From Myxococcota bacterium (GTDB lineage: Bacteria > Myxococcota > B64-G9): DNA of 64,000 bases. Location of the stretch: contig JAKLGA010000009.1 of the NCBI GenBank assembly GCA_022710975.1, positions 117,547 through 181,546 of the forward strand. The letters run 5' to 3'. The translations under genes and the position numbers were made by a program. The notes beneath the pieces are model-generated. The model was not told the DNA's origin. It did not search any database and saw only the letters and a list, made by a program, of their open reading frames with translations. The stretch's first letter is position 1. The number at the start of each line of letters is the position of its first letter. This document shows, piece by piece, positions 18,048 to 59,736 of the stretch.

Positions 18048-18812
18048 CTACGAAATCCTGGCTCGGCAGCGGAGGTGGAGCTCGTTCACGCGAGCCCACA
18101 CGGCCTTCGCGAATTCGCTGGAATCTCTGAAGTCCTTGGGATGCAGCGGCGCGCCGACCTCCACGGCCACCTGCTCCCCGGTCACCACCCGGTCCATGGT
18201 CTTGGGCACCACCCGGTAGGTGCCGTCGAGGCCGACCGGGATGATGGACAGCCCTTGCTCGTGGGCCGCCTCGATGGAGCCGGTGCGGATCTCCTGGCGG
18301 AGCTGGCCATCCGCGGAGCGCGTCCCCTCGGGGAACACCACCACGGCGGTCGATTCCTTGCACATGCGCAGGGTCTTCTCCAGCGCCTTGCGCCGGCTCT
18401 CCTTGCTGCCCCGCTTGATGAAGATGGTCCCGCCCGCGTAGGCGTGCATCCCGATGAAGGGCAGGTAGGCGACCAGGTCCTTGGACAGGAAGGCCACCGT
18501 GTCCAGGGCCTCCATGAGCACGGGGATGTCCACGTAGCTCTGGTGGTTGGAGACGAACATCATCCCGCGGCTGTCCGGCCGGGGGAGGTTCTCCTGACCG
18601 GTCACCTCGAGCTTGATGCCGAGCACGTAGCGGCGGACGTTCTTGGCCCACAGCACCATCATGTGGAGCTTCTTGAGGAGCTCCTCTCGCCGGTAGCGCC
18701 GGGTCACGAGCAGGGTCAGGGGCAACGGAACGACCAGGGCGTGGGGTGCAGACGCCGCGGCCGCGGCGACGAACCTGGCGAGCATGTTGAGGTGACCGAG
18801 CTTCAGTCGCAT
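18048..18812 (-). CDS. 1-acyl-sn-glycerol-3-phosphate acyltransferase (PlsC family)
   Basis: NHQSYVD (HxxxxD) and FPEGTRS motifs. RBS GGGAGG 5 nt before ATG 18812. Confidence 0.8.
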   Translation of the reverse strand: MRLKLGHLNMLARFVAAAAASAPHALVVPLPLTLLVTRRYRREELLKKLHMMVLWAKNVRRYVLGIKLEVTGQENLPRPDSRGMMFVSNHQSYVDIPVLMEALDTVAFLSKDLVAYLPFIGMHAYAGGTIFIKRGSKESRRKALEKTLRMCKESTAVVVFPEGTRSADGQLRQEIRTGSIEAAHEQGLSIIPVGLDGTYRVVPKTMDRVVTGEQVAVEVGAPLHPKDFRDSSEFAKAVWARVNELHLRCRARIS

Positions 18813-28726: not shown

Positions 28727-29215
28727 GTGAGAGCAGCTCCCCTGGCGGGATTCTTCCTGGTGATGCTCCCTGGCCTGGCCCTGGCCGCTGATCCGGCGGC
28801 CGCACCGGTGCAGCAGCAGCACCGGCTGGTGACGCTCGAGCTCGACGGGCCAGCGTTGCGGGTCCTGGCCTCCCAGGTCGTCCCCCTGCCGTTGCCCAAG
28901 CGCCGGGGAGGGGAGGCGGTCGGCTCCGGCCACCCCTGGCGCGCCCGGCTGCTCGGCCCCGGAGGCGCGGTGCTGCACACCCTCGGCCTCGGCGATCCCA
29001 CCGAGCTGCGCGTGGAGCACGCCGACGACGCGGGCCGGATCCGCGCCCAGCGCGTCCGCCGGGAGGGCCCGGTGGTGTTCTGCCTGCGCCTGCCGCTGAC
29101 CGCAGGCCGGCTCGAGCTCCAGCGGCTCGATCCCGCCCGGCCGCGGGAGCGGCGGGCCCCGGAGGACGCCTGGCAGGGCGTCGGCGCGGTGGAGCTCCCG
29201 GGGGTGGCGCCGTGA
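28727..29215 (+). CDS. Secreted hypothetical protein
   Basis: RBS GGAGGTGG before GTG. Signal peptide. Stop overlaps the start of the M64 gene. Confidence 0.4.
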   Translation: MRAAPLAGFFLVMLPGLALAADPAAAPVQQQHRLVTLELDGPALRVLASQVVPLPLPKRRGGEAVGSGHPWRARLLGPGGAVLHTLGLGDPTELRVEHADDAGRIRAQRVRREGPVVFCLRLPLTAGRLELQRLDPARPRERRAPEDAWQGVGAVELPGVAP

Positions 29216-31764
29216 GCCGCCCGCGCGCGGCCCTGGCCGCCTGCCTGGTCAGCCTGGGCCTGGCGCTGTCCGCCGCGGCCTACGACGTGGAGACCGTGCA
29301 GACCTCCGGGGACTCCGCCAACCGCATCGATCTGGTCATCCTGGGGGACGGCTACAGGGTCGAGGACCAGGCCAAGCTGACGAGCGACGTGCAGTCCTTC
29401 CTCACGCGCTTCTGGCAGCAGACCCCCTACGCGGAGTACCGCAACTTCTTCAACGTGAAGCTCATCCACGTCATCTCGAACGAGAACGGGGCGGACAACG
29501 GCTCGTACGGCGCGGTGCGCGACACGGCCCTGGGCGCCTACTACAACTGCTACAACATCGATCGCCTGATCTGCCTCGACACCTGGGCCGTGTACCAGGC
29601 GGCCAACGCGGACGCGCCCGAGTGGGACTTCCTGTTCGTGATGGTGAACGATCCCAAATACGGGGGCTCCGGGGGCTCGATCTCGGTCTTCTCCGTGCAC
29701 GCCCTGGCTGGAGACATCGCCATCCACGAGTTCGGGCACTCGTTCGGCGGGCTGGCCGACGAGTACGAGGACGCCTACCCGGGCTACCCGGGCTGCGGCT
29801 CGGACTGCCCGGAGCCCAACGTGACCACCCGGACGGTGCGCGAGGAGGTCAAGTGGAACCCGTGGATCGACGCGGCCACGCCGGTTCCCACGCCCGAGAC
29901 CGGGACCTACTGGGACGCGGTGGGGGTGTTCGAGGGAGCCCGCTACCAGACCACGGGTGTCTTCCGCCCGAAGCAGGCCTGCTTCATGCGCCAGTACGGA
30001 GTCCCGTTCTGTGAGGTGTGCGAGGAGGCCCTGGTGCTGTCGGTCTACCAGCAGGTCTCGCCGCTCGACAGCGCCTCCCCGGCCGGCCCGGTCAGCCTCG
30101 GGAGCTGCGACCTGGCCAGCTTCGAGGTCGCCTACCCGCGGCCGGTGCCGGACACCGTGGAGGTCACCTGGCGCGTGGACGGCCAGGTCGTCCAGACGGG
30201 TGGCGCGGGGTTCGAGCTGGACGCCTCCGGGCTGTCGATCGGCGCCCATCAGCTCGAGGCCGAGATCGCCGATCTGACTCCGCTGGTGCGAACCGACCCC
30301 TCGTCGCTCCTGGTGGAGCGCCAGATCTGGACGGTCCAGGTGACCGGGACGCCGGTCTGCCTCATCGGCGGGGAGTGCATCCCCGATGGCACGCTGAACC
30401 CCGCCAACCCCTGCGAGATCTGCCAGGCGGCGAGCCAGCCCGGCGCCTGGAGCCCGCTCTCCGGGGTGGCCTGCGGCGACGGCCTCTACTGCAACGGCGC
30501 GGAGGCATGCCAGGCCGGCGCCTGCCAGGCCGGCGCGGCGCCCTGCCAGGACGACGGTCTGGCCTGCACGCTCACCTGCGACGAGGCCGGGCAGCGCTGC
30601 AACCTGCCCCAGGCAGGCTGGTGCGCCATCGCCGGGGTGTGCAGGACGGCGGGCGAGGCCGAGCCCGGCAACCCCTGCCGCACCTGCCAGCCGGGCGTGG
30701 ATCCCTCGGCCTGGGTCCCCGACGACAGCGCCACCTGCGGCGACGGGGAGTTCTGCGACGGCCCGGAGACCTGCCAGGGCGGCGTCTGCCAGGCCGGCGC
30801 GGCGCCCTGCCAGGACGACGGCCTGGCCTGCACGGACACCTGCGACGAGGCCGGGCAGCGCTGCGACGTGCCCCAGGCGGGCTGGTGTGCCATCGCCGGG
30901 GTGTGCGCGACCGCCGGGGAGGCCGAGCCCGGGAACCCCTGCCGGACCTGCCAGCCCGGGCTGGACCCGCTGGCCTGGACGGCGGACGATGGCCGGGCCT
31001 GCGAGGACGGCCTCTACTGCAACGGCGCGGAGACCTGCCTGGCCGGCGCGTGCCAGGCCGGCGCGGCGCCCTGCCAGGACGACGGCCTGGCCTGCACGGA
31101 CACCTGCGACGAGGCCGGGCAGCGCTGCGACGTGCCCCAGGCGGGCTGGTGCGCCATCGTCGGGGTGTGCGCGACCGCCGGGGAGGCCGAGCCCGGGAAC
31201 CCCTGCCGGACCTGCCAGCCCGGGCTGGACCCGCTCGCCTGGAGCCCGGACGACACGGCGGGCTGCGACGACGCGCGGCCCTGCACGACCAGCGACCATT
31301 GCCAGGCGGGCGCCTGCGTGGGCCAGCTCAGCCCGGGCTGCTGCACCGTGGCGGCCGACTGCGACGACGGGCTCGCCTGCACCCAGGACGCGTGCGACGC
31401 GGGCCAGAGCGCTTGCTCCAGCTCGCTGTCGGCCGGGGCCTGCCTGGTGGACGGCGTCTGCGCCCTCGCGGGAGAGGCCTCGCCGGGCAACGCCTGCCTG
31501 ACCTGTCAGCCCGGCACGGCGCCGCGGGCCTGGACGTCGGCCGAGGGCGCGGCCTGCGACGATGGCGACCCGTGCACCGCGGGGGGCGCCTGCCTGGCGG
31601 GCGCCTGCGCGCCGGGTGAGCGCCTGTGCGACCCGAGTTGCCCCTGCGAGGAGCCCGCCATGAAGGGCGGCTGTGGGTGCGGGGCGGGGACGGGCCAGGC
31701 GCCGGGCGCCCTGCTGTCCGTGCTGCTCGGGTGGCTGTGGGTGCGGCGCCGGCCGCGGGCGTGA
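29212..31764 (+). CDS. M64-family (IgA-peptidase-like) zinc metallopeptidase with three 88-aa cysteine-rich tandem repeats and MYXO-CTERM
   Basis: M64 hallmark IAIHEFGHSFGGLADEY. Three near-identical Cys-rich repeats. C-terminus GGCGCGAGTGQAPGALLSVLLGWLWVRRRPRA. Confidence 0.75.
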   Translation: MSRPRAALAACLVSLGLALSAAAYDVETVQTSGDSANRIDLVILGDGYRVEDQAKLTSDVQSFLTRFWQQTPYAEYRNFFNVKLIHVISNENGADNGSYGAVRDTALGAYYNCYNIDRLICLDTWAVYQAANADAPEWDFLFVMVNDPKYGGSGGSISVFSVHALAGDIAIHEFGHSFGGLADEYEDAYPGYPGCGSDCPEPNVTTRTVREEVKWNPWIDAATPVPTPETGTYWDAVGVFEGARYQTTGVFRPKQACFMRQYGVPFCEVCEEALVLSVYQQVSPLDSASPAGPVSLGSCDLASFEVAYPRPVPDTVEVTWRVDGQVVQTGGAGFELDASGLSIGAHQLEAEIADLTPLVRTDPSSLLVERQIWTVQVTGTPVCLIGGECIPDGTLNPANPCEICQAASQPGAWSPLSGVACGDGLYCNGAEACQAGACQAGAAPCQDDGLACTLTCDEAGQRCNLPQAGWCAIAGVCRTAGEAEPGNPCRTCQPGVDPSAWVPDDSATCGDGEFCDGPETCQGGVCQAGAAPCQDDGLACTDTCDEAGQRCDVPQAGWCAIAGVCATAGEAEPGNPCRTCQPGLDPLAWTADDGRACEDGLYCNGAETCLAGACQAGAAPCQDDGLACTDTCDEAGQRCDVPQAGWCAIVGVCATAGEAEPGNPCRTCQPGLDPLAWSPDDTAGCDDARPCTTSDHCQAGACVGQLSPGCCTVAADCDDGLACTQDACDAGQSACSSSLSAGACLVDGVCALAGEASPGNACLTCQPGTAPRAWTSAEGAACDDGDPCTAGGACLAGACAPGERLCDPSCPCEEPAMKGGCGCGAGTGQAPGALLSVLLGWLWVRRRPRA
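30472..31263 (+). repeat. Three tandem 264-nt (88-aa) near-identical direct repeats inside the M64 gene
   Basis: Units begin at 30472, 30736 and 31000 (CGDG.. / CGDG.. / CEDG..), with >90% nucleotide identity. Confidence 0.8.
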
Positions 31765-47979: not shown

Positions 47980-48690
47980 TCAGCGCCGGCCGCCGACGAT
48001 GCGCAGGATGAGCAGGAACAGGTTGATGAAGTCGAGGTACAAGACCAGCGCGCCGTGGATGGCCATCTTGCGCCCCGCCTCGGTGCCGGAGTCCACAACC
48101 TCGCCCATCAGCTTGATCTTCTGCGTGTCCCAGGCGGTCAGCAGCACGAAGATGAGCACGCCGGCGTAGGTGGTCACCCAGTACAGGGTGCTGTTCGCCC
48201 AGAACAGGTTCACCACCGAGGCGATGATGAGCCCGAACAGGCCCATCATGGCGAAGTGCCCCACGCCGCTCAAGCTCCGCTTGGTGAAGTAGCCGTAGGC
48301 CGAGGTGGCGCCGAAGGTGCCGGCGGTCACGAAGAAGGCGGCGGCGATGCCGGACAGCTCGAAGAACAAGAACAGCACCGCGAAGGTGAGCCCGTTCAGG
48401 GCCGCGTAGGCCAGGAACAGGGCGATGGCGGTGGCGGAGTTGATGCGCTTGGCAGCCCAGGAGAACACCAGCACCAGCACCAGCTCGCCGACCAGCAGCG
48501 CGTAGAACACCCCGCTCCGGGCCATCTGCCAGGCCCACTCGGCCGGCACCAGCATGGCGATGGCGCCGGTCAGCGCCAGCCCGACCGTCATCCAGCGGTA
48601 GACCACCCACAGGAACGCGTTCTCGGCCGTGATGGCGCGCGCGCCCGCGCCCAGGTCCGTCTGCCCCTGGTAGCCCTGGAAATCCGCCAT
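47980..48690 (-). CDS. Bax inhibitor-1/YccA (TMBIM) family membrane protein
   Basis: Seven TM helices, with family-typical length and C-terminal charged tail. RBS AAGGAGG before ATG 48690. Confidence 0.8.
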   Translation of the reverse strand: MADFQGYQGQTDLGAGARAITAENAFLWVVYRWMTVGLALTGAIAMLVPAEWAWQMARSGVFYALLVGELVLVLVFSWAAKRINSATAIALFLAYAALNGLTFAVLFLFFELSGIAAAFFVTAGTFGATSAYGYFTKRSLSGVGHFAMMGLFGLIIASVVNLFWANSTLYWVTTYAGVLIFVLLTAWDTQKIKLMGEVVDSGTEAGRKMAIHGALVLYLDFINLFLLILRIVGGRR

Positions 48691-48755
48691 GTGGCACCTC
48701 CTTGTCCGGCCCCGTATCTTGGGAGATCCGCGGGCCGGATGCAAGCGGACCGCGG

Positions 48756-48808
48756 CCGGGGCGTTGGCAGACCCGCCGTGTGTGAATCTCTCAGGGCAGC
48801 CTTCGAGG
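48756..48808. repeat. Intergenic repeat family A, copy 1 (CCGGGGCGTTGGCAG..CGTGTGTGAATCTCTCAGGGCAGCCTTCGAGG)
   Basis: About 50-nt element. Copies at 54500..54553 (about 85% identical) and 58017..58059 (5' two-thirds conserved). Confidence 0.6.
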
Positions 48809-48855
48809 AGTCCTGCCTCCAACTAGACACCGGCCACTCGCAACCAGCCACTGGC

Positions 48856-48938
48856 TTCTCGCCACCTCCTTCCTTTCCTTCACCCCGGGGAGGTACAATC
48901 GCGCAAGGCCTGACCCGGCACGCTCAGGAGGGATTCCG
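48856..48938 (+). promoter_or_regulatory. Conserved leader with candidate -10 TACAAT (48894..48899) 40 nt before ATG; duplicated at 52851..52933
   Basis: About 80 nt nearly identical between the two paralog leaders, including CACCTCCTTCYTTTCCTTC, GGAGGTACAATCGCG and RBS AGGAGGGA. Confidence 0.3.
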
Positions 48939-51707
48939 ATGGGGATCATGCGGTTCGCAACCCGCCTCCGCCCGATCTGCGCGATCCTCGGCCTGGCCCT
49001 GTGCCTGGGGGCCCTCCTCGCCTGCCCGGGTTGCGTCGACTACCAGGGGAACGTCCCCTGCGAGTCCGACTCCGACTGCGGCAGGGCGCAGGCCTGCGAC
49101 CTGACCCAGGGAATCTGCCGTCCCATGTCCTGCGTCCTGGCCTGCCAGGGCCGCGAGTGCGGGCCCGACGGCTGCGGCGGGACATGCGGCGCCTGCGCCG
49201 CGGGGGAGACCTGCAGCCAGGGCGGACAGTGCCTCGGCGCATGCTCGCCAGACTGCTCGGCCCGCGAGTGCGGGCCCGACGGCTGTGGCGGGAGCTGCGG
49301 CGCCTGCCCGGTGGGAGAAGTTTGCACCCCTGAGGGTATGTGCGGCGGCGACTACCCCTGCTGCGGAACCCGGGAGTGCGGGCCGGATCCGTGCATGGGT
49401 GTGTCGTGCGGCGCCTGCCTGCCGGGCGAGACATGCACCCCTGGGGGCATGTGCGAGGGCGACTACCCCTGCTGCGGGATCCGCGAGTGCGGGCCCGATC
49501 CGTGCGCGGGCGCCCCCTGCGGCACCTGCGGGATGGACGAGTGGTGCGACACGAGCGGCCAGTGCCAGGGCGTCTGCACCCCCGACTGCACCGGGAAGAG
49601 CTGTGGGGACGACGGCTGCGGCGGGAGCTGCGGCACGTGTGCGTACGATGAATGGTGCAGTGCGGCAAGCCAATGCAGGGCGGCCGCCCAGGTGGGGGAG
49701 GCCTGCCCCTTCGAGAGCATCAACCCGGACGCCGGGGTGTGCGCCGAGGGCTTGACCTGCCTGGGCCTTGCGCCCGAACCCTACAGCTCTCCGTGCTCGG
49801 CCGACGAGGACTGTCTGCTGTATCTCCAGGATTTCCATAACCCGGATTGTTCTGACGGTGGATGTGGGGGTTCCTTCTGCGTCGCCGATTGCGTGGCGGA
49901 GGACTGCGACTCAGGTTTCAGCCCACAAATGGTCGGGGGTCATTGCTACTGCATCCCGGCGAACGCAGGCCCGAACGACGGCCAGGTGGGCGACGCATGC
50001 TACTTCGATCCAGTCCATACCGAGGAGGGCGCCTGCGTCCCAGGCCTCGAGTGCTTTGGCATGGGGCCGTACTGGAACGAGATGCCCTGCACGGATGACT
50101 CCGACTGCTTGGCCTTCCTCCCTGCCTCCTACAACCCAGAGTGTGTCGCTGGCAGTTGCGGCGCGTCTCTCTGCGTCGGCCCTTGTGCCGCAGACGGCTC
50201 CTGCGCCGACGGCCTACAGCCGATTGTGATGGGCAGCGAGTGCTTCTGCATTCCCAGCGACCAGATCGGCACTGGCCAGCCCGGCGACCCCTGCCCCTTC
50301 GAGCAGGTCCATGCGGACGACGGGCCGTGCGCTCCGGACCTCGTGTGCCTGGGCAATGCCCAGGGCGCTGAAGCCTGCGCGACCGTCGCAGACTGCGTGA
50401 ACTTCGGCTACGACCAGGTCTACAACCCGGAGTGCGTCCAAGGCTTCTGCGGCTTCTCCTTCTGCGCCGGCCTCTGCGTGAACGGCGGCCACTGCGACCC
50501 CGGTTTCCTGCCGATCGAATCGGAGGGCACCTGCTACTGCATCCCGGACACCTCGGAGGCCACCGGTCAGGCCGGCGATCCCTGCCCCTTCGACCAGGTC
50601 AACCCGACCGCGACCGAGTGCGCTGTCGGCCTGACCTGTCTGGGGATCCTGCCGGATCCGAGCTCGACTCCCTGTCCCGCGGGCGACGCGGACTGTCTGG
50701 CTTTCTACGCGGCCGCCTGGAACCCCGACTGCGCAGTGGGCGGCTGCGGCGTGTCCTTCTGTTCGGCAACGTGCACCAACGGCGCCTGCCCCGCGGGCTT
50801 CGGGACCTATGACATCATGGACACCTGCTACTGCATCCCCCTCCAGCAGCCGTCCCCCTCCAGAATCGCCTACGTCACCAACCGGAGCGGCCGGTACGAG
50901 ATCTGGGTGATGACCGGGGACGGCCTCGGGCAGCGGCAGCTCACCTTCAGCGCGCCCGACGAAACCCAGCGCATGGGCGCGCACTCGCCGCGCTGGTCGC
51001 CGGACGGCGCCCGGATCGCCTTCCTGTACGGCGCCGGGGACCCGACGCCGGACAGCACGCGGACCATGGTGATGAACGCCGACGGGACGGACCTGCGGGA
51101 GGTCACCCACGCGATCAGGACCTACTGGGAGCTGATTGCCTGGAGCCTGGACGGGACCGCGATCCTCCAGGAGCTCGACCTCTTCATGAACTCTCAGATC
51201 CTGGGCGTCGACCTGGCGACCGGCGCGACCCGGGTGGTCCTGGACGACACCCCGGACGGCTACCTCATCGCGGTCTCCCCGGACGTCAACCCGGTGGACG
51301 CCACGCTCGCGTACATCGCCTACAACACCGGCGGCGACTGGGGCGGCTTGCGCCTCCGCGCCATGGACGGCGGCGCCGAGACGACCCTCCTCGGCGCCGG
51401 GGTCGGGGTCGCCTCGCCGAGGTGGTCGCCGACCGGCGAGGAGATCGCGTACTCGCTCGAGGACTCCACGACAGGCAGCTTCAAGGTGATCGCCCGGGCT
51501 GGCGGGCCGCCCCGGACCATCACCTTGGACCCTCCGGTCGACACCAGGGCGGTCAGCGTGGACTGGACCGAGGACGGGTTCATCTTCAGGCGGTCCGCGG
51601 GCTCCGGCGGTGAGATCTGGGCCTGCGGGGCGGACGGCAGCGGGGCTCACGCGCTCCTCGCGGACGGCTGGAACAACCTGGAGCCGGACTGGAGGAGCGC
51701 GCCGTAG
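48939..51707 (+). CDS. Cysteine-rich repeat lipoprotein with C-terminal TolB-like (PD40/WD40-like) beta-propeller
   Basis: Lipobox LLAC. Repeated RECGPDGCGGSCGAC units. C-terminal segment with SPDG/SPRWSPDG PD40-like blades. Confidence 0.75.
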   Translation: MGIMRFATRLRPICAILGLALCLGALLACPGCVDYQGNVPCESDSDCGRAQACDLTQGICRPMSCVLACQGRECGPDGCGGTCGACAAGETCSQGGQCLGACSPDCSARECGPDGCGGSCGACPVGEVCTPEGMCGGDYPCCGTRECGPDPCMGVSCGACLPGETCTPGGMCEGDYPCCGIRECGPDPCAGAPCGTCGMDEWCDTSGQCQGVCTPDCTGKSCGDDGCGGSCGTCAYDEWCSAASQCRAAAQVGEACPFESINPDAGVCAEGLTCLGLAPEPYSSPCSADEDCLLYLQDFHNPDCSDGGCGGSFCVADCVAEDCDSGFSPQMVGGHCYCIPANAGPNDGQVGDACYFDPVHTEEGACVPGLECFGMGPYWNEMPCTDDSDCLAFLPASYNPECVAGSCGASLCVGPCAADGSCADGLQPIVMGSECFCIPSDQIGTGQPGDPCPFEQVHADDGPCAPDLVCLGNAQGAEACATVADCVNFGYDQVYNPECVQGFCGFSFCAGLCVNGGHCDPGFLPIESEGTCYCIPDTSEATGQAGDPCPFDQVNPTATECAVGLTCLGILPDPSSTPCPAGDADCLAFYAAAWNPDCAVGGCGVSFCSATCTNGACPAGFGTYDIMDTCYCIPLQQPSPSRIAYVTNRSGRYEIWVMTGDGLGQRQLTFSAPDETQRMGAHSPRWSPDGARIAFLYGAGDPTPDSTRTMVMNADGTDLREVTHAIRTYWELIAWSLDGTAILQELDLFMNSQILGVDLATGATRVVLDDTPDGYLIAVSPDVNPVDATLAYIAYNTGGDWGGLRLRAMDGGAETTLLGAGVGVASPRWSPTGEEIAYSLEDSTTGSFKVIARAGGPPRTITLDPPVDTRAVSVDWTEDGFIFRRSAGSGGEIWACGADGSGAHALLADGWNNLEPDWRSAP

Positions 51708-51794
51708 GTTCGCCGGGCCCCCCGGGGCCGTAGGTGCCAGCCGCCTGCAAGGCTGGGTGGTCCGCTGCACACGCAACCACCAGCGAGGGTCGCG

Positions 51795-52769
51795 ATGAAG
51801 GGCAAGTCGGTCGATCTGCTGATGAAGGCGAAGCGTCGGCTCGACCCGCGGGCCCACACGGCCTGGACCGAGTTCCACCCGTTCCGCTCGGCCGAGGCGC
51901 GCGCGGAGTACTTCGCCTCTCTCGAGCCGCGCGAGCGGCGCTGGCCGATCCCCTCGGAGGACCGCGTCGTCGAGACCTCGTGGGCGCGGACCTTCGTCCG
52001 CGTGGGCGGATTGGCCGGCGGGCCGCCGCTGGTGCTGATGCACGGCGCGGCCACCAACTCCCTGAGCTGGGAGTGCAACATCCAGGGGCTGTCGGAGCGT
52101 CATCGCACCTACGCGATCGACAACCCCTACGACGTCGGCCGCAGCGTCTACGCGCGCGACGCGAGCAGCGTCGACGACTACGTGGCCTGGCTGGACGAGA
52201 CGCTCTCCGCGCTCGGGCTCGCGGGCGGGATCGATCTGGTCGGCATGTCCTACGGCGCGTGGCTGACCGCGAAGTACACGCTCGCCCACCCCGAGCGCGT
52301 CGCCCGCGCGGTGTTGCTGGTCCCGGCCCTGACGGTGCAGAACGTGCGCTTCGTCTGGGTGGTGCGCTGCCTGTTGTCGATGCTCGATCGGAGGCTCTCG
52401 CAGAACTTCGCGCGCTGGACGCTCCGCGACGCCTACGAGCAGGGCCCGCGCTCCAGGCAGCTCGTCGAGGAGATCGCCGACGACGGCCTCGCCCTGTCGA
52501 AGAAGTGCATCTCCCGGCACGTGGTGCTCCCCACCAGGCTCGAGGACGCCGAGTGGCGGCGCCTCACCACCCCGATGCTGGTGCTCGTGGGCGAGCACGA
52601 GAAGCACTACCACCCGGCGAAGGCGGTCGCCCACCTCGCGCGCGTGGCGCCCCGGGTCAAGGTGGAGGTCATCGCCGGCGCCGGGCACGATCTCGCGGCG
52701 GTCTTCCCCGAGCTGGTGAACCGGAAGGTGCTCGCCTTCCTCGAGGAGGGGCGGGCCGATTCGCGGTAG
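51795..52769 (+). CDS. Alpha/beta-fold hydrolase
   Basis: HGAATN oxyanion region, nucleophile elbow GMSYG, C-terminal GAGHDL (His). Confidence 0.8.
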   Translation: MKGKSVDLLMKAKRRLDPRAHTAWTEFHPFRSAEARAEYFASLEPRERRWPIPSEDRVVETSWARTFVRVGGLAGGPPLVLMHGAATNSLSWECNIQGLSERHRTYAIDNPYDVGRSVYARDASSVDDYVAWLDETLSALGLAGGIDLVGMSYGAWLTAKYTLAHPERVARAVLLVPALTVQNVRFVWVVRCLLSMLDRRLSQNFARWTLRDAYEQGPRSRQLVEEIADDGLALSKKCISRHVVLPTRLEDAEWRRLTTPMLVLVGEHEKHYHPAKAVAHLARVAPRVKVEVIAGAGHDLAAVFPELVNRKVLAFLEEGRADSR

Positions 52770-52850
52770 GGGCCACCAGACACTCGCGACTCGTCACCCC
52801 CTTCGGGGGCTGCTCCGCTTCGCTCGAGGACTCGCTCGCTCCGCGGCTCG

Positions 52851-52933
52851 CCACCCGCCACCTCCTTCTTTCCTTCCTCCCGTGGAGGTACAATCGCGGA
52901 AGGCCTGGCCCGGCGCTCTCAGGAGGGACTCCG
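52851..52933 (+). promoter_or_regulatory. Duplicate of conserved leader; candidate -10 TACAAT at 52889..52894
   Basis: Same motif order and same 40-nt spacing to the ATG as at 48856..48938. Confidence 0.3.
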
Positions 52934-54487
52934 ATGGGGATCACGCGGTTCGCAACCCGCTCTCGTCCGGTCCGCGCGACCCTCGGACTGGCCCTGTGCC
53001 TGGGGGCCGTCCTCGCCTGCCCGGGCTGCGTCGACTACCAGGGGACCGTCCCCTGCGAGTCCGACTCCGACTGCGGCAGGGCGCAGGTCTGCGACCTGAC
53101 CCAGGGGATCTGCCGTCCCATGTCCTGCATCCAGGCCTGCCAGGACCGCGAGTGCGGGCCCGACGGCTGCGGCGGGAGCTGCGGCGCCTGCGCCGCGGGG
53201 GAGACCTGCAGCCAGGGCGGACAGTGCCTCGGCGCATGCTCGCCCGACTGCTCGGCCCGCGAGTGCGGGCCCGACGGCTGCGGCGGGAGCTGCGGCACCT
53301 GCCCGGCAGGAGAAGCTTGCACCCCTGTGGGCGTGTGCGGCGGCGACTACCCCTGCTGCGAAACCCGGGAGTGCGGGCCGGATCCGTGCATGGGTGTGTC
53401 GTGCGGCGCCTGCCTGCCGGGCGAGACATGCACCCCAGCGGGCATGTGCGAGGGCGAAGCCCCCTGCTGCGGAAACCGGGAGTGCGGGCCGGATCCGTGC
53501 GCGGGTGTTTCGTGCGGTGAATGCATGGCGGGCATGCCATGCACCCCATCTGGCATTTGCATGGGCGATGCCCCCTGCTGCGAAAACCGGGAGTGCGGGC
53601 CGGATCCGTGCCTGGGACTGTCCTGCGGCACCTGCGGGATGGACGAGTGGTGCGACGCGAACGGCCGGTGCCAGGGCGTCTGCACCCCCGACTGCACCGG
53701 CCGCCAGTGCGGGGACGACGGCTGCGGCGGGAGCTGCGGCACCTGCGCGTACGATGAATGGTGCAACGACCTCGGCATCTGCGTCTGGGAATGCCAGCCC
53801 GACTGCACCGGCAAGGAGTGCGGGCCCGACGGCTGCGGCGGGAGCTGCGGCACCTGCGCCCCGATGCAGGTGTGCGACGCGACCGCCCGGTGCGTGCTCC
53901 CGGGCAACCAGCAGGCCGGCGAGCCCTGCGACTTCGACACGGTGAACGTGGGCGCCGGGGAGTGCATGACCGGCCTGGTCTGCCTGGGTGTCCTTCCGGA
54001 CCCCACCATAGGGGCCTGCACCACCGACGGCGACTGCGTCAGTTTCCTGGACCCCCTCTGGAACCCGGACTGCGTGGGCGGCTACTGCGGCGCCTCCTTC
54101 TGCTCGCCGGAGTGCGAGAACGGCGCCTGCGACCCTGGCTTCCAGCCGCAGTACATCAGCGGCCTGTGCATGTGCATCCCTTACTGGCAGGACCCTGACC
54201 CGGGCCTGCCCGGCGACCCCTGCGCGTGGGACCAGGTGAACTCCGAGGCGGGCAACTGCGAGGCCAGCCTGCTCTGCCTGGGTATCCCCCCGGACCCGCT
54301 CGAGACGCCCTGTCCCGCGGGGGACGGGGACTGTCTGGCTTTCTACGCGGCCGCCTGGAACCCCGACTGCGTGGACGGCGGCTGCGGCGTGTCCTTCTGC
54401 TCGGAATCGTGCACCAACGGCGGCTGCATTACTGGCTTCGAGCCGATCGACATTTCGGGCGACTGCTACTGCGTCCCCCTCCCGTAG
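52934..54487 (+). CDS. Cysteine-rich repeat lipoprotein, paralog of 48939..51707 lacking the beta-propeller
   Basis: First ~720 nt >95% identical to paralog 1. One extra Cys-repeat unit. RBS AGGAGGG. Confidence 0.75.
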   Translation: MGITRFATRSRPVRATLGLALCLGAVLACPGCVDYQGTVPCESDSDCGRAQVCDLTQGICRPMSCIQACQDRECGPDGCGGSCGACAAGETCSQGGQCLGACSPDCSARECGPDGCGGSCGTCPAGEACTPVGVCGGDYPCCETRECGPDPCMGVSCGACLPGETCTPAGMCEGEAPCCGNRECGPDPCAGVSCGECMAGMPCTPSGICMGDAPCCENRECGPDPCLGLSCGTCGMDEWCDANGRCQGVCTPDCTGRQCGDDGCGGSCGTCAYDEWCNDLGICVWECQPDCTGKECGPDGCGGSCGTCAPMQVCDATARCVLPGNQQAGEPCDFDTVNVGAGECMTGLVCLGVLPDPTIGACTTDGDCVSFLDPLWNPDCVGGYCGASFCSPECENGACDPGFQPQYISGLCMCIPYWQDPDPGLPGDPCAWDQVNSEAGNCEASLLCLGIPPDPLETPCPAGDGDCLAFYAAAWNPDCVDGGCGVSFCSESCTNGGCITGFEPIDISGDCYCVPLP

Positions 54488-54499
54488 CCGTCCCCTGCA

Positions 54500-54553
54500 G
54501 GCAGGACGTTGGCATACCCTGCGTGTGCGAATCTCTCAGGGCAGCCTTCGAGG
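54500..54553. repeat. Intergenic repeat family A, copy 2
   Basis: CAGGACGTTGGCATACCCTGCGTGTGCGAATCTCTCAGGGCAGCCTTCGAGG. Confidence 0.6.
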
Positions 54554-54632
54554 GGTTTGCCGATACCCGACCCACGATCTATCGAGGAACCCGGCTACCC
54601 GCGGCCACCCGCGGCACTCGGGTGGCACCTGC

Positions 54633-54674
54633 GAAGGCCTCTTCTTCGCGGCGTCATGCGGAAGATCCGGTCCC
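54633..54674. repeat. Intergenic repeat family B, copy 1 (GAAGGCCTCTTCTTCGCGGCGTCATGCGGAAGATCCGGTCCC)
   Basis: 41 of 42 nt identical to 57950..57991. Confidence 0.7.
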
Positions 54675-54779
54675 ACGAGAGGTACCGGCTGCCTGAAGAT
54701 GTGCAGATTGCGCTGCGGGTCTGAACGCGCGAAAATTGTCCAGGGGAGAGCATCGTCCCTGTGAGAATGGAGGTTACCC

Positions 54780-55517
54780 ATGCCAGCGATCCGTGGGGCC
54801 TTGGCGATGGGGCTCGCCCTCTCTTTGCTCTCATTCTCCGGCTGCGGTTAGGGTGCTTCCCTCTCGGAGATTCGCATCGAGCTCCAGGACCACGGCAGCG
54901 CCTCCTGCCTGGGCGCGGCCCACCTGATGATCCGCGCCCAGAACTCCCACGACACCCTGGAGCAACACGAGTACGGCAAGTTCTTCCAGACGAACCCCCT
55001 GGCCTGCGCGGGCGGCACGATCCTGGTCTCGGGCCTCGAACCAGACCACGAGTTCCGGGTCTCGGTCAGCCTGTGGGACTCGACCACCGACATGGATGGC
55101 CTGCTGGCCGAGGGCTCGACCTCCGCCTTCGAGCTCGAGCCGGGCGCCTCCCTACCCATCGCGGTAGACCTGTCGCGCACCGACGCTCGTCCGGGCACGA
55201 TCAGCTTCGCGTCCCCGCCGGCCGACTGGTCCCAGGCCGCCGCGGCAGAGGCGTTTCGCTTCACCATCACCGCGGACGGGGAGACCGTGCCGCAGCGCTC
55301 TGGCCACCTCGACGTCCAGCCCGAGCGCCTCACGGATCCGTTCCCGCTGATCATCTCCGACCTGCCCTTGACAGCCGAGCTTACCGAGTACCACGTGGTG
55401 GTGGAGGCACTGGGCAGGAGCACGCAGGGTCTCGACCCGCCCGTGCTCCACTCCTGGACCGCCACCGCTTTCCTGGGCGGCCCGGCGGTCAACCCTGGAG
55501 ATTCGATCCTCAAGTAG
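54780..55517 (+). pseudogene. Lipoprotein gene interrupted by an in-frame TAG immediately after the lipobox (signal peptide 54780..54851; body 54852..55517)
   Basis: RBS GGAGG 6 nt before ATG 54780 encodes MPAIRGALAMGLALSLLSFSGCG, then TAG at 54849..54851. The same frame continues open for 222 codons to 55517. Confidence 0.45.
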
Positions 55518-55657
55518 GAGAGGGCCCAGCCCGCGAGTGCCAGCCGCCTGCTATCGCCGCGCTACCATCCGAAGTACAATGAGGGAGCCAGACGGCAGGC
55601 GAACGAGAGGGCGTGCGTGGAGGTCGGGATCCTGGAGATGCGGAGGAGGCGAATTTG

Positions 55658-56323
55658 GTGAGGGCTACAGTCTTGGCTCTTGTGATTCTTCTGGCCACGG
55701 GCTGTGCCGAGCAGGTTGCGGGCGTCGATGGTGGCACAAATGGAAACGGCTACTGTTCTTATCGGCTTGCCATCGATGAACTGCTACTATTTTCGGACTA
55801 TGTAGCTCTTGGCAGACCGGTAGAAGCAAGGAAAGTGCTTTTCGAGGCGTTAGCTACTGCAGTTATCCCGCCTGAGGACTTCTTTTTTTGCACTATCTTC
55901 AGTGTGGCAACCATTGACACGCTCAACGTGGCTGTAAGACAAGACGACAATGAAGAGGCAACACCGCCTTGGGGCGATGAATTGGCGACCTACCATGATG
56001 AATGCATGCGAATTGCAGAATTTGAAAGAGGAACACAAAATCTACTTGCATATCCGACCGCACTCTTTTTTGCGCAGAACAACATATACCTGAATCGGCC
56101 ATATCTTATTGAGATGCTGGAGGTCGTGGACTCGAAGGTAAAAGTTGGACCCTCGAATACCAGATGCGGTGTAGCGCTGGAAATCGAGGTGACTGAGCTG
56201 TTCGATGCCGTTGCGGTGGGCGACTTTTCTGCGCTGTTGGAGGCCGATACGTATCCTTGTCGGCAGAATGATGGTGCGGCCATTGATGACCCTGACGGCT
56301 CCGATGGATCCGAAGGGAAGTAG
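55658..56323 (+). CDS. Lipoprotein, hypothetical (low-GC island gene)
   Basis: RBS GGAGGAGG then TTG 55655/GTG 55658. Signal + lipobox LATGC. About 47% GC. Confidence 0.55.
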   Translation: MRATVLALVILLATGCAEQVAGVDGGTNGNGYCSYRLAIDELLLFSDYVALGRPVEARKVLFEALATAVIPPEDFFFCTIFSVATIDTLNVAVRQDDNEEATPPWGDELATYHDECMRIAEFERGTQNLLAYPTALFFAQNNIYLNRPYLIEMLEVVDSKVKVGPSNTRCGVALEIEVTELFDAVAVGDFSALLEADTYPCRQNDGAAIDDPDGSDGSEGK

Positions 56324-56424
56324 AGAGACATCCCCCGCCGAAAGGACCCCCGCAGGCAGGTGCCAGCCACACTAGATGGGCATCCGGGAATCGGGGCTGA
56401 ATGACGAGATTGGAGTTCGAGGTC

Positions 56425-57339
56425 ATGAAATCGATCATCCATGCTGGGTGGTATGCGGCGCTTGCGATACCCTTGCTGATGGTTGGCGCAGAATCCTGTA
56501 CTGGAGGAGCAGGTCAAGGGCGCTACTCTGGCGGCATGGGAGGGGCGAAGATCGTGGGGAGAGGATTGGAGTTCGATTGCCCTGAGTATCAATATGGCGA
56601 CTGGGAGAACCCCCAGAAATTCTATCTATTTCCGAGAATCATAAAGAGTGGCGAGAGAGTAAAAATCTATCTGGCAGTGGAAGATGATGTGTTGATTAGA
56701 GAAAAGAATGCGAATGGAGAAGCAGAATTTTCTGTAGAAGTACTGCATGAGAAGGCATCACTCACCAGGGTGGGCTTTGCTGATGACCTGGGCAGCTTGG
56801 CGGGAACCATGTATTGGGCCCCGGTATTTCTGGGAACGGTTGATGTGGAGACCGATGTGCAGGGGTGGGTGGATGTGAACTATTTCAATGGGAAACAGGT
56901 GATAGGTACCAGGAGCATTCTGGTGACAGATGGCACCAAGGAGGAGTCTTCCTGGACATCAAAGGTGGTCTGTCGACTCGATTGTGGAAAATCTGTGCAG
57001 TTGGACCACGTCCTTGTCTACGTCGACCGCACCCCTGTCGAGTATTTCACCAAGATCGTGGCAGCCACGGGTGGCACCCTCGGCAGGATAGTATCTGTTG
57101 GATTCGGACAAGAGCCGTATGGGAATTGCTATCCTAGTTGCTATTTTCCATACCAGGGCGTTGCGTTGGACATCATTTTGCCTGAAGCGGGATTTCACAC
57201 CGCCTGTGGAGCGCTAGATTCAGTGGAGAAGTTGGGAATTCCTGGAGTGAAGGTCGCAATGCCTACTAAAGAATTCGGCACTGTCGATTTGAACCCGCAA
57301 TGCAGAACGATGGAGTTTCCCGTTGGCGACTGCCACTAG
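56425..57339 (+). CDS. Secreted/lipoprotein-like hypothetical protein (low-GC island gene)
   Basis: ATG 56425 preceded by GGAG. Signal peptide ending VGAESC. No known motifs. Confidence 0.55.
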   Translation: MKSIIHAGWYAALAIPLLMVGAESCTGGAGQGRYSGGMGGAKIVGRGLEFDCPEYQYGDWENPQKFYLFPRIIKSGERVKIYLAVEDDVLIREKNANGEAEFSVEVLHEKASLTRVGFADDLGSLAGTMYWAPVFLGTVDVETDVQGWVDVNYFNGKQVIGTRSILVTDGTKEESSWTSKVVCRLDCGKSVQLDHVLVYVDRTPVEYFTKIVAATGGTLGRIVSVGFGQEPYGNCYPSCYFPYQGVALDIILPEAGFHTACGALDSVEKLGIPGVKVAMPTKEFGTVDLNPQCRTMEFPVGDCH

Positions 57340-57384
57340 TGGGCTGAGGAGAGAGGGCTGGCGCGGGGCGGCGGAGCAGGCAGC

Positions 57385-57729
57385 TCAGTGCAGGCGCGCG
57401 GGTGGCTCCTCCGCCTTGACCGCGTTCAGGTCCGCCTTGAGCTCGGAGATGTCGGCCTTGACGATGACCATGTCCGCCTTGAGGCCCGCCACGTCGGTCT
57501 TCAGCACGGACACGTCGGTCTTCAGCACGGACACGTCCTGCTTGAGGACCCGCACGTCGCCTGCCAGGTCGAGCACCGCGACCTCGAGCCGATCGAAGCG
57601 CGCGTCCTGCTGGTCGAAGCGCCTGTCGTGCCGGGCGAGGTGCTCGCCGTTCATCTGCACGCCTTCGGCCACGGCCTGGATGGAGGACTGGATGTTCTCC
57701 AGGAGAATGGCGACCTGATCCTGTTCCAT
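57385..57729 (-). CDS. Small coiled-coil protein with heptad tandem repeats (DVSVLKT x2, then variants)
   Basis: ATG 57729. RFDQQDARFDRLE followed by DVRVLKQ/DVSVLKT/DVSVLKT/DVAGLKA/DMVIVKA/DISELKA/DLNAVKA. Perfect 21-nt DNA duplication. Confidence 0.55.
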   Translation of the reverse strand: MEQDQVAILLENIQSSIQAVAEGVQMNGEHLARHDRRFDQQDARFDRLEVAVLDLAGDVRVLKQDVSVLKTDVSVLKTDVAGLKADMVIVKADISELKADLNAVKAEEPPARLH

Positions 57730-57917
57730 GGCGCCTCCAGGGTAGCGGGCCTCGCGGGTGGAATCAACCCTCGCGTGCCCTCCCACGGACGGCGTTCCCG
57801 AGCAAGAACAATGCTACGATGCTGGATCCACGAATCCGGGGGGTTACGTTGCCAGGCGGCCCTCGGCGCTGCGCGGGTGACCGGATTTCCCGGACACCGT
57901 GACCGGAAATCGGACAC

Positions 57918-57945
57918 ACGCGCCAGGTGCCAGCCACCCGGAGCC
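57918..57945. repeat. Intergenic repeat family C (ACGCGCCAGGTGCCAGCCACCCGGAGCC), copy 1
   Basis: 28 of 28 nt identical to 58831..58858. Core GTGCCAGCC also at 51733, 55537 and 56360. Confidence 0.7.
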
Positions 57946-57949
57946 CGGC

Positions 57950-57991
57950 GAAGGCCTCTTCTTCCCGGCGTCATGCGGAAGATCCGGTCCC
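57950..57991. repeat. Intergenic repeat family B, copy 2
   Basis: GAAGGCCTCTTCTTCCCGGCGTCATGCGGAAGATCCGGTCCC. Confidence 0.7.
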
Positions 57992-58016
57992 TTCCTGAGG
58001 TGCCACCCACCTGCAG

Positions 58017-58059
58017 CCGGGGCGTTGGCAGGCCGTCCGTGCGTGGATCGCCCAGGGCA
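58017..58059. repeat. Intergenic repeat family A, copy 3 (partial)
   Basis: CCGGGGCGTTGGCAGGCCGTCCGTGCGTGGATCGCCCAGGGCA. Confidence 0.5.
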
Positions 58060-58202
58060 TTTCATGGAGGCGAAGGACAGGCGGGAAGGGCAGGGGGCGA
58101 GGTGCCAGGCAGGTTCCAGCCCCCCTCCGGCCGGAACTTCAGGCCTCCGTGGTCCCGTCGCGCCACGCGCCGTCTCGTTTCATGGCGGATAACAATCACG
58201 AG

Positions 58203-58817
58203 CTAGTCAATGAAAAAGCACATTCTGCGCCCTCCCTGGACTGGGATGCAGGGAAGGCCGTAGGTCGCGTTTCCTGGATACTTGCAATCATCGCAGTCTG
58301 ATTGGTCTTCGCAAAGGTGCGAACAGAATGCTTGTGGGTTTTGTGGGTCACCATCGCAAAAAAGACCTTCTCCACAGGCTGACTGCTGTTGGTCAGTACA
58401 GGGTGTGCCACAGGTGCCTTCTCGTGAACCACATTCTGCCCCGAGAGCTATCTTCTCGCAGAACGACGGTTCACCAAGTTGGCTGACGCAGCACATAGGA
58501 CTTCCGTCATCTAGTATGTCCAAGCAGTCAGAATCGGCATCACATGGAATGGTACAAAGACCCATGGAGGGCCCAAAGAGGCCATACTTGCAGAATTGTG
58601 ATTCACAGTCTTCGTTTTTGGCGCATAAGTCGCCAATACCCGCAGCGTTTCCATCGTTGCCGTCTTGACCATCCATCCCAGAATCAGGAGGCGATTCCAG
58701 ATCGCTGCATCCAAGGAACAGCCATTGAATGGCAACTATTGAGACAAGCAGAGAGACTCTTCGAACTACAATATAGGGTTCGAGGAAGGTCGATCTGCTG
58801 AGACTCTTGAACCCCAT
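58203..58817 (-). CDS. Cysteine-rich lipoprotein, hypothetical (low-GC island gene)
   Basis: ATG 58817. Signal + lipobox FLGC. 24 Cys in the mature part. Confidence 0.55.
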   Translation of the reverse strand: MGFKSLSRSTFLEPYIVVRRVSLLVSIVAIQWLFLGCSDLESPPDSGMDGQDGNDGNAAGIGDLCAKNEDCESQFCKYGLFGPSMGLCTIPCDADSDCLDILDDGSPMCCVSQLGEPSFCEKIALGAECGSREGTCGTPCTDQQQSACGEGLFCDGDPQNPQAFCSHLCEDQSDCDDCKYPGNATYGLPCIPVQGGRRMCFFID

Positions 58818-58830
58818 GGCTACCTCGCCC

Positions 58831-58858
58831 ACGCGCCAGGTGCCAGCCACCCGGAGCC
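58831..58858. repeat. Intergenic repeat family C, copy 2
   Basis: Identical 28-mer, 20 nt upstream (gene sense: inverted) of ATG 58817. Confidence 0.7.
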
Positions 58859-58878
58859 GGGCTCCTCGAGGCTCGCGC

Positions 58879-59508
58879 CTAGCGCGGCTTCCGGCGCAGC
58901 AGCCCCAGCCCGATCACCAGCCCCAGCACCAGCCCGCCGCCCTGGCCCGCGGTGGAGTCGGAGCAGTCCTCCGTGTCGTCGCAGGTGTGCCAGTAGCCCG
59001 CCTCGATGGTGTGAAAATGGCAGGACTGGTCGAGCGCCTGCGCGAGGACGAACTCCACCGGGGCGGAGTAGAGGTCGCAATCCACCTCCGTCCCGTCCAC
59101 CCTGAAGCTCGCCAGGAGGCAACCGTCACTCTTGCTGATCACGAAGACCCCGCGCTCGCCCACGGCCAGGGGAGTGCAGCGGTTGCACCCGGATTCGCAC
59201 GGCGTCCCTGCACCCCAGGAGAACTCCACCGGGAAGTCCACGGCCGGGCACTCGAGCCCGCCATCGCAGTAGATCGGCGTCTGGAGGAGGCTGATGCTCA
59301 GCCCGTCCGTCTGGACCGCCGTCACCTCGGCCTGGGCCACCATGGAATTCTCCTGCCATTCGAAGCAGCAGGGCGCGCCGGGGCACATCGCGGCCGCGCT
59401 GGAGGGAAGGACGACCAGCAGCAGCGCGGACAGGAGCCCGGCCAGCGCGACACCCTCGGCCGCGCGCGCCGCGCGGCAGACCCCTCGAGGAAATCCCTTC
59501 TCCCGCAT
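58879..59508 (-). CDS. Secreted cysteine-containing protein with C-terminal hydrophobic + RRKPR anchor-like tail
   Basis: RBS GGAGGT 7 nt before ATG 59508. Signal peptide. C-terminus CSDSTAGQGGGLVLGLVIGLGLLRRKPR. Confidence 0.5.
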   Translation of the reverse strand: MREKGFPRGVCRAARAAEGVALAGLLSALLLVVLPSSAAAMCPGAPCCFEWQENSMVAQAEVTAVQTDGLSISLLQTPIYCDGGLECPAVDFPVEFSWGAGTPCESGCNRCTPLAVGERGVFVISKSDGCLLASFRVDGTEVDCDLYSAPVEFVLAQALDQSCHFHTIEAGYWHTCDDTEDCSDSTAGQGGGLVLGLVIGLGLLRRKPR

Positions 59509-59736
59509 GTCCCCGACCTCCGTGAAGATGATTCCCGACCAGGGGAGGCTACCAGATAGAACGCCTGAAACCAAGGGGCGCGCCCGACCCGCAGGCGCCA
59601 GCCGTCGCGGGGGCGGACCCATGCGTCCGCCCCTGTGGGACTCCGGACCGATTCTCTGTAGGGGCAGACCCAACTTTCTGCCCCGGCGGCTGCACCAGCA
59701 GGCAGGGTTTCGGGAGGGCGCAGGGCACAGTCACGG

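Follow-up and report, generated by a model that had tools for sequence, protein, structure and literature searches.

The intergenic spacers of a 64,000-nt stretch of the genome of an uncultured Myxococcota bacterium (contig JAKLGA010000009.1; the whole stretch is called the window in the following) contain families of short repeated modules, which are combined in different orders in different spacers. A palindromic joint motif of 13-19 nt, (CTGCA)GGTG-CCAGC-CACC(TGCAG), is found where the modules meet. Modules A (including a diverged subtype, A-prime), B and C are 33-80 nt long and non-coding, and the three rearrangement breakpoints that could be mapped each lie at a module border. The best reading is that these elements are neither MITEs (miniature transposable elements with inverted repeats) nor parts of an integron nor RNA genes. 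We give about an even chance to the view that they are lineage-specific interspersed mosaic repeats, which resemble the mosaic elements of neisserial intergenic DNA (NIMEs) and the interspersed mosaic elements of E. coli (BIMEs) in their build and act as recombination substrates.

A preliminary description, made from the window alone, had placed family A at three sites, and a degenerate pattern recovers exactly these copies (48762-48788, 54507-54533 and 58023-58049; 0.03 matches expected by chance). In blastn, 48762-48808 aligns with 54507-54553 at 91.5% identity over 47 nt (E 5e-14) and 48755-48798 with 58016-58059 at 84% over 44 nt (E 4e-7). The near-identical pair that had been reported for family B is also found (pattern copies 54633-54674 and 57950-57991; 0 expected). 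A block called C in the preliminary description turned out to be repeated itself, 57917-57949 recurring at 58830-58862, and the two GGTGNCAC blocks that it mentioned are opposite-orientation copies of one palindromic joint element, which had likewise been missed. No further copy of A, B or C is present elsewhere in the window. The coordinates of all modules, motif copies, imported segments and genes are collected in Table 1.

The fullest form of the joint motif reads CTG(C)AGGTG-CCAGC-CACCTGCAG. With up to two mismatches, 18 matches were found, compared to 4.6 expected, and with up to one mismatch, five of the six matches fall between 51.7 and 58.9 kb. The copies at 51732, 55536, 56350, 57925, 57998, 58100 and 58838 are all on the plus strand, and only the copy at 54620 is reversed. 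Most copies can fold into a stem of 4-7 bp with a 5-nt loop; they are shorter than classical repetitive extragenic palindromes (REPs), and several are degenerate. Two possible functions of the palindrome were discarded. The folding energies do not consistently favour the transcribed strand, as they should for a strand-specific RNA hairpin, and the strand of the motif does not track GC skew across the loci, as it should for a replication-polar motif of the KOPS or Chi type.

The arrangement of the modules differs between spacers, as had been proposed. At 57.9 kb (57917-58175), the order is motif (inside C), B, motif, A3, motif and D, while at 54.5 kb (54494-54674) it is half-motif, A2, F, reversed motif and B. 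The previously claimed block order is correct in both places: GGGTGGCACCTGCG at 54620-54633 directly precedes B, and AGGTGCCACCCACCTGCAG at 57998-58016 lies between B and A. The gap after A, given as 80 nt, actually measures ~65 nt. A third arrangement, consisting of the motif, ~30 nt and A-prime, is seen on another contig (L028, see below), where one instance is closed by a reversed motif.

Open reading frames (ORFs) that overlap the modules share the peptide EGLFFxASCGRSGP, as noted earlier (ORFs 54525-54764 and 57899-58192). The GC content of these spacer ORFs is flat across codon positions and lacks the third-position bias of the genome (~0.9), and the tandem unit of family A, with 46 nt, is not a multiple of three. 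The modules are therefore non-coding, in line with the preliminary description, and its alternative of a degraded protein-coding gene is not borne out by these flat profiles. Searches of Rfam and structure predictions, both suggested there as checks, revealed neither a known RNA family nor a shared fold. At the gathering threshold, Rfam has no match in the window, and by E-value the region 48.6-59 kb yields two chance-level matches only (E 3.7 and 4.9). The spacers do not stand out in folding energy (z -2.1 to +1.5), and different copies have different predicted folds. RNAalifold on 12 copies of family A gives -0.9 kcal/mol, with no consensus structure and no covariation. Families A, B and C are not palindromic, and a stem CCnTC/GAnGG proposed by eye performs no better than shuffled controls. 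A consensus scan of the spacers detected no sigma-70 promoter-like and no intrinsic-terminator-like site. A sigma-54 spacing, GG-N10-GC, seen by eye, fits just two internal A units and is not conserved, and an extracytoplasmic function (ECF)-type promoter geometry, GGAACTT-N16-CGTC, was rejected as a feature of the modules, as it occurs only in the imported module D.

Family A and the palindrome are not confined to the window. The sampled DNA of the lineage comprises ~219 kb and includes three loci (L025, L027 and L028) that were reached via paralogues of the cysteine-rich proteins with the same NCBI locus-tag prefix (PK668_), and four loci from the same reactors (L022, L029, L030 and L031). 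The tetranucleotide correlation of the latter four with the window is 0.80-0.93, compared to 0.26-0.44 for unrelated loci, and the contigs of L027 and L028 carry proteins of one metagenome-assembled genome (MAG) at NCBI (PK668_). In L027 (contig Ga0116241_10000045), family A occupies three consecutive spacers between co-oriented genes; its copies begin 2-100 nt past the upstream stop codon, and two of them are tandem arrays of 46-nt units. The A-prime subtype fills four spacers of L028, and the window copy A3 resembles these copies. In L031, three paralogous genes are preceded by weaker A-like stretches, which are oppositely oriented. In total, the family A matches with E < 0.1 represent 10 separate sites, all outside called genes in loci that are ~85-90% coding, and unrelated control loci contain no match to family A. 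In the 219 kb, the exact 13-mer core of the palindrome, GGTGCCAGCCACC, has five occurrences, all in intergenic DNA: two in the window (57926 and 58839), two in L031 and one in L029. Copies with one mismatch include L028 15036. The preliminary description had considered that the modules might recur only once more in the genome; for family A, extra copies on other contigs show otherwise.

A merged pattern (A copies 1 and 2, plus B) has no exact match among 185,579 species representatives, and A, B, C and D are all absent from viral contigs. A metagenome scan with a 22-mer of B, in a collection that evidently lacks the source contig, returned two chance matches only, both in unrelated coding genes. 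Both encode the peptide RIFRMTP, one in a MraY-like gene and the other in an apparent helix-turn-helix gene (judged by eye from the translations). Codon bias explains these matches, which are not embedded in any longer similarity.

Additional, unrelated families of intergenic repeats are present in L028 and L025, and the genome is generally rich in intergenic repeat sequences. In L028, inverted-repeat arrays of GGTTTCCAAGCGC and GCGCAGGAAACC, with multiple hairpins, follow A-prime units in two spacers (15200-15340 and 17880-18070). In L025, a single 167-aa gene is enclosed by a 42-nt inverted repeat (41/42 bases; 4692-4733 and 5311-5352). Several paralogous cysteine-rich lipoprotein genes have in common a conserved upstream region of ~100 nt (...GGGTGGAAGCTGG...AGATCCTCCGGGAGGGATGGGnATG).

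A link between the modules and recombination is suggested by the three breakpoints. The first one ends the truncated cysteine-rich gene 2, whose TAG stop codon corresponds to CAG in its full-length sister. The two align up to 10 nt past this stop codon, and the end of the homology is directly followed by the half-motif and A2. The second one concerns the low-GC gene for a 304-aa lipoprotein. Its homologue (58% identity at the protein level, 77% at the DNA level) adjoins an upstream peptidase S8 gene on contigs of ~50% GC. The DNA similarity extends from ~56385 to the stop codon at 57339, and the donor-like homology therefore starts 14-25 nt to the right of the motif at 56350-56371. The third one involves the low-GC gene for a 204-aa lipoprotein, for which a homologue with 80% identity is present on the 1.2-kb contig L032. 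DNA similarity to L032 begins 10 nt upstream of the start codon (58827), spans the gene and module D and ends at 58119. Because the homology includes D, this module is imported DNA and not a host repeat. Outside this homology, the window is flanked by module C and, at the opposite end, by a degenerate motif, while L032 has a low-GC gene at one end and GC-rich non-coding DNA at the other; the latter recurs in L022, where it precedes an ArdC-like, conjugation-associated gene. Thus, the imported segment 58119-58827 is bracketed by motif copies in the same orientation (58100-58121 and 58838-58851), and the two mapped left junctions of imports, at the motifs 56350-56371 and 58100-58121, coincide with ...CCAG of the motif loop or follow it closely.

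Table 1. Features of the repeat locus. Coordinates refer to the window unless another locus is named.
Feature	Coordinates	Strand	Remarks
Family A, copy A1	48758-48818	+	nhmmer E 2.7e-15; divergent spacer between Bax1-I gene (-) and cysteine-rich gene 1 (+)
Family A, copy A2	54503-54560	+	E 1.8e-14; begins 15 nt past stop of truncated cysteine-rich gene 2
Family A, copy A3	58019-58095	+	E 4.8e-11; diverged A-prime subtype, longer on the right; resembles L028 copies
Family B, copy B1	54631-54674	+	43/44 bases identical to B2
Family B, copy B2	57948-57991	+	43/44 bases identical to B1
Module C, copy C1	57917-57949	+	32/33 bases identical to C2; exact motif core at 57926-57938
Module C, copy C2	58830-58862	+	exact motif core at 58839-58851; starts 2 nt past imported segment
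Module D	58119-58174	+	common to L022 (52/56 bases) and L032; within imported segment
Module E, GC-rich CGCT-type stretch	52795-52844	+	also L027 15411-15483; 96% over 26 nt, E 4e-7
Small module F (GATACCCGACCC)	54562-54573	+	weak short matches in spacers of L027 (by eye) and L022 (16 nt, E 0.46)
Joint motif copy	51732-51749	+	25 nt past stop of cysteine-rich gene 1
Half joint motif (CCTGCAGGCAGG)	54494-54505	+	begins directly after end of paralogue homology (~54497)
Joint motif, reversed (GGGTGGCACCTGCG)	54620-54633	-	abuts B1
Joint motif copy, degenerate	55536-55551	+	18 nt past a stop codon, left of low-GC gene 1
Joint motif copy without right arm	56350-56371	+	between low-GC genes 1 and 2
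Joint motif copy, most complete palindrome (AGGTGCCACCCACCTGCAG)	57998-58016	+	between B2 and A3
Joint motif, degenerate or duplicated (AGGTGCCAGGCAGGTTCCAGCC)	58100-58121	+	at left junction of imported segment
Imported segment with 304-aa low-GC gene	56385-57339	+	77% DNA identity to contigs of ~50% GC
Imported segment, D and 204-aa low-GC gene	58119-58827	-	extent set by homology to L032
Bax1-I family protein	47980-48690	-	
Cysteine-rich protein (gene 1)	48939-51707	+	C-terminal beta-propeller
Alpha/beta hydrolase	51795-52769	+	
Cysteine-rich gene 2	52934-54487	+	truncated paralogue of gene 1
Lipoprotein gene with in-frame TAG	54780-55517	+	
Low-GC orphan lipoprotein (low-GC gene 1)	55658-56323	+	51% GC; third-position GC ~0.5-0.56
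Low-GC orphan lipoprotein, 304 aa (low-GC gene 2)	56425-57339	+	
114-aa coiled-coil protein	57385-57729	-	
Low-GC orphan cysteine-rich lipoprotein, 204 aa	58203-58817	-	
Protein with Myxococcus-type C-terminal anchor-like tail	58879-59673	-	
Conserved ~100-nt upstream region	L031 9420-9700, 13527-13788, 15469-15838; L028 8470-8560, 15398-15437		

According to the preferred reading as recombination substrates, the modules would encode neither RNA nor protein and would act at the DNA level, either as portable homology patches or as hairpin-forming sites. Recombination, gene conversion or illegitimate joining at the modules could thereby reshuffle the modules of neighbouring spacers, lead to truncation or duplication of adjacent genes and fix gene-sized foreign DNA between them, in a locus whose genes are devoted to secreted proteins and lipoproteins. 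The observations best fit lineage-specific mosaic repeats that are active at the recombination junctions of this variable locus, or that have at least gathered there. We infer that they cause or assist recombination rather than merely gather at junctions, and the same holds for the way in which they spread. To judge by the positions of the junctions, they may have spread by recombination, as suggested in the preliminary description.

Several observations weigh against this interpretation. Repeats could accumulate passively in permissive spacers, and two foreign segments only have mapped ends, at which the crossovers are similar relative to the palindrome on the left and not on the right. Family A and the palindrome do occur in spacers of other contigs, while modules B and C are limited to their two window copies each in the ~219 kb. 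This sample is biased, as the extra loci entered it through the cysteine-rich paralogues. The evidence for local gene conversion is weak because the identity within a locus (90-91%) is just slightly above that between loci (86-89%). The palindrome copies are nearly all direct, in contrast to the REPs of BIMEs, which alternate in orientation. Finally, no recombinase, transposase or REP-associated tyrosine transposase (RAYT) was found in the window or among the neighbouring annotated genes, and no mobilising enzyme can therefore be named. This was evaluated by Pfam domain searches for integrases, recombinases and transposases, which found none among the window ORFs scanned (those at ~21-25 kb were left out) or in the gene tables of the Joint Genome Institute (JGI), and no transposase gene, including the IS200/IS605 type, was found in the ~219 kb of annotated DNA. 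Integration linked to tRNA genes was dismissed, as no tRNA genes were found.

The closest parallel in architecture is provided by the NIMEs, in which 20-bp inverted repeats flank many families of 50-150-bp repeats, arrayed beside genes for surface proteins (PMC1797815). NIMEs were proposed to promote recombination with foreign DNA (PMC1797815). The myxococcal elements share with the NIMEs (dRS3 plus RS elements) a short palindrome that separates non-coding families of repeats, tens of nucleotides in length, in intergenic arrays, the location of these arrays beside genes for secreted or surface proteins, and the association both with variable sequence and with foreign genes in small islands. 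The differences are several. The palindrome GGTG-CCAGC-CACC is unrelated in sequence to ATTCCC-N8-GGGAAT of dRS3, and its central 5 nt are conserved, whereas those of dRS3 are variable. Module A can form tandem 46-nt arrays without a palindrome between the units, and the host belongs to the Myxococcota and not to the genus Neisseria, in which NIMEs reach hundreds of copies. Thus, the elements are NIME-like in build and not members of the NIME family.

The resemblance to the REP and BIME elements of Enterobacteria, Pseudomonas and Stenotrophomonas is looser, due to the alternation of REPs and the link to RAYTs in BIMEs. Like these elements, the modules are extragenic, GC-rich, mosaic and species-specific, and are often found just 3' of genes. 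The stems that most copies of the joint motif can form are only 4-7 bp long, the largest family (A) is not palindromic, and a RAYT gene was not found here, while REPs and BIMEs are tied to RAYT transposases. Integron cassette arrays with attC sites, such as the Vibrio cholerae repeats (VCRs), also contain single foreign genes of atypical GC content between host-specific, hairpin-capable repeats. Neither an IntI integrase nor an attI site was detected in the scanned part of the 64-kb window, and the modules lack the R''/L''-L'/R' architecture, the inverse core and the conserved fold of attC. The candidate core GTTGGCA deviates from GTTRRRY, as its sixth position is a C instead of the purine that this consensus demands. 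Furthermore, the genes are found in both orientations, and modules are also located between native genes. With MITEs, including the Correia elements and the enterobacterial repetitive intergenic consensus (ERIC), the modules share the small size, the lack of coding capacity and a multi-copy, intergenic occurrence. This assignment was rejected as well: the flanks of A, B and C show neither inverted termini nor a duplicated target, there is no recurring full-length unit, and extents and neighbours vary. In agreement with the preliminary description, the modules fail the tests for REP, MITE and attC elements.

Several other explanations were considered. The modules, especially A, could be cis-regulatory sites for a transcription factor or enhancer-binding protein that co-regulates genes for secreted and cysteine-rich lipoproteins and would be repeated because its regulon is large. 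The primary sequence of A is conserved and includes invariant positions, whereas an RNA structure is lacking. This would suit such sites, as would its tandem 46-nt units and the distance of 50-250 nt upstream of a gene start that is seen for many copies (A1, A2, copy b in L027 and those in L031). Sigma-54 activators are encoded nearby, and the opposite orientation of the L031 copies would be expected for orientation-independent sites. Yet, A is not associated with a conserved sigma-70, sigma-54 or ECF promoter geometry in or beside it, A3 has no co-oriented downstream gene, and copy c in L027 starts 2 nt past a stop codon. As the sharp module ends also coincide with rearrangement junctions, and B and C vary in position and orientation relative to their neighbour genes, a regulatory role is considered rather unlikely. 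An origin from transposable elements, as remnants or as non-autonomous MITE- or REP-like derivatives of an IS200/IS605- or IS110-type enzyme encoded elsewhere, which would recognise the palindrome as a hairpin, is unlikely. The discrete module boundaries, the hairpin geometry described above and the two cases in which an A unit is bracketed by inverted motif copies (window 54494/54620 and L028 ~19320/19432) agree with it, and RAYTs were proposed to mobilise REP and BIME elements (PMC2817692). It is contradicted by the lack of terminal inverted repeats, target-site duplications and a recurring full-length unit, by tandem direct units, which are atypical of MITEs, and by the failure to find a transposase in the ~219 kb or any match in viral contigs.

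It is quite improbable, though suggested by the left junctions at ...CCAG and by the motifs in the same orientation around 58119-58827, that GGTG-CCAGC-CACC is the crossover site of an unrecognised, hairpin-directed recombination system. Such a system would capture single foreign genes and would be integron-like in function without IntI and attC, with A, B and C as accessory or spacer elements. We know of no phage or recombinase that uses this palindrome. Passive relics of local segmental duplication during growth of the cluster, of no wider significance, are highly doubtful as a general explanation. The near-identical B and C copies, known from the window only, and the recent tandem duplication of a cysteine-rich gene in this locus lend it some plausibility for B and C only, whereas A, the palindrome and E are present on unlinked contigs of the same genome. 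Moreover, similarity stops sharply at the module borders and gives way to unrelated flanks, and the genes beside the copies are not homologous to each other. Small structured RNAs, leader or trailer elements of mRNAs, or fragments of decayed genes are extremely unlikely. The location of several copies just after the stop codons of co-oriented genes and the RIFRMTP-encoding matches of the B 22-mer could be cited in their favour. These matches are accounted for by codon bias, however, and neither an Rfam match nor a shared fold or covariation was detected; in addition, module orientation is inconsistent relative to the flanking genes, and the spacer ORFs show no third-position GC bias. Compared with these alternatives, mosaic repeats that serve as recombination substrates remain the preferred interpretation.

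The window is 100% identical to the JGI metagenome contig Ga0209507_1000032 (319 kb) from digester samples, and every contig that carries proteins of the window is 99.98-100% identical to it. At NCBI, the proteins of this locus are named 'MAG TPA ... Myxococcota bacterium', with PK668_ locus tags. A protein scan of genomes based on the hydrolase revealed no close relative of the locus. The GC content of the window is 66-81%, except for a drop to 52-63% at 55-59 kb. This drop contains the three orphan lipoprotein genes (55658-56323, 56425-57339 and 58203-58817) with 51% GC, compared to ~72% for the genome; the third-position GC of native genes (~0.9) is well above theirs. The three lipoproteins have no Pfam, NCBIfam or PHROG match, and their genes appear to be horizontally acquired. 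The 304-aa and 204-aa proteins, the two of the three orphans that were searched, have one non-identical homologue each in 5.8 billion proteins. On the contigs of ~50% GC (L015 1-5405; also L016-L019), a 968-aa peptidase S8 gene overlaps with its end the homologue of the 304-aa gene, and a YD-shell (Rhs-type) fragment comes after this homologue. For the donor lineage, this arrangement is a hint that the context is one of toxins or effectors. The genes that flank the repeat arrays encode proteins with a signal peptide or lipobox, and the flanking orphan proteins produced non-specific coiled-coil matches only in Pfam, NCBIfam and PHROGs.

The cysteine-rich paralogues form a tandem pair (48860-50857 and 52856-54497), in which the beta-propeller domain is absent from the second copy. 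Their duplication is recent and includes the 5' leader (48860-48938 and 52856-52933, 89% identity). Both contain internal 111-nt (37-aa) repeats (49185-49705 and 53180-53811), and a similar tandem pair of cysteine-rich genes is present in L022. The lipoprotein gene downstream of B1 starts with a good signal peptide and lipobox (MPAIRGALAMGLALSLLSFSGCG) and is interrupted by an in-frame TAG at 54849-54851. The frame then continues for 221 codons with a native-like third-position GC of 0.90, and the JGI annotation covers 54927-55517 only; either the gene is expressed by means of an internal start codon or it is a pseudogene. The gene for the 114-aa coiled-coil protein contains a perfect 21-nt tandem repeat (2.3 copies, 57490-57537), which encodes heptads VSVLKTD. 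Two copies of a local direct repeat, GTGACCGGAwwTC(C)CGGACAC, adjoin module C on its left (57879-57917) and have an internal CCGGAAATC / GATTTCCGG symmetry. The ECF-sigma promoter geometry in module D (58133-58159) points antisense into the 204-aa gene in the window, while D in L022 (18740-18795) is located ~140 nt upstream of the ArdC-like gene of a conjugative element. Remote from the repeat locus, 264-nt tandem coding repeats (30369-31609) are found within the gene for an 850-aa peptidase M64-family protein (29212-31764).

Mosaic arrays of intergenic repeats are well described in only a few lineages, such as Neisseria, enterobacteria and pseudomonads, and to our knowledge no such arrays have been described in Myxococcota. 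The present repeats are a well-documented case of a genome feature whose kind is already known. One extension of this view, the capture of foreign genes, is speculative and rests on two junctions. They coincide with the breakpoints of one gene truncation and two single-gene imports in a locus for secreted proteins. Provided that the repeats favour such events, the diversification of surface and secreted protein repertoires in large myxobacterial genomes could be approached through them.

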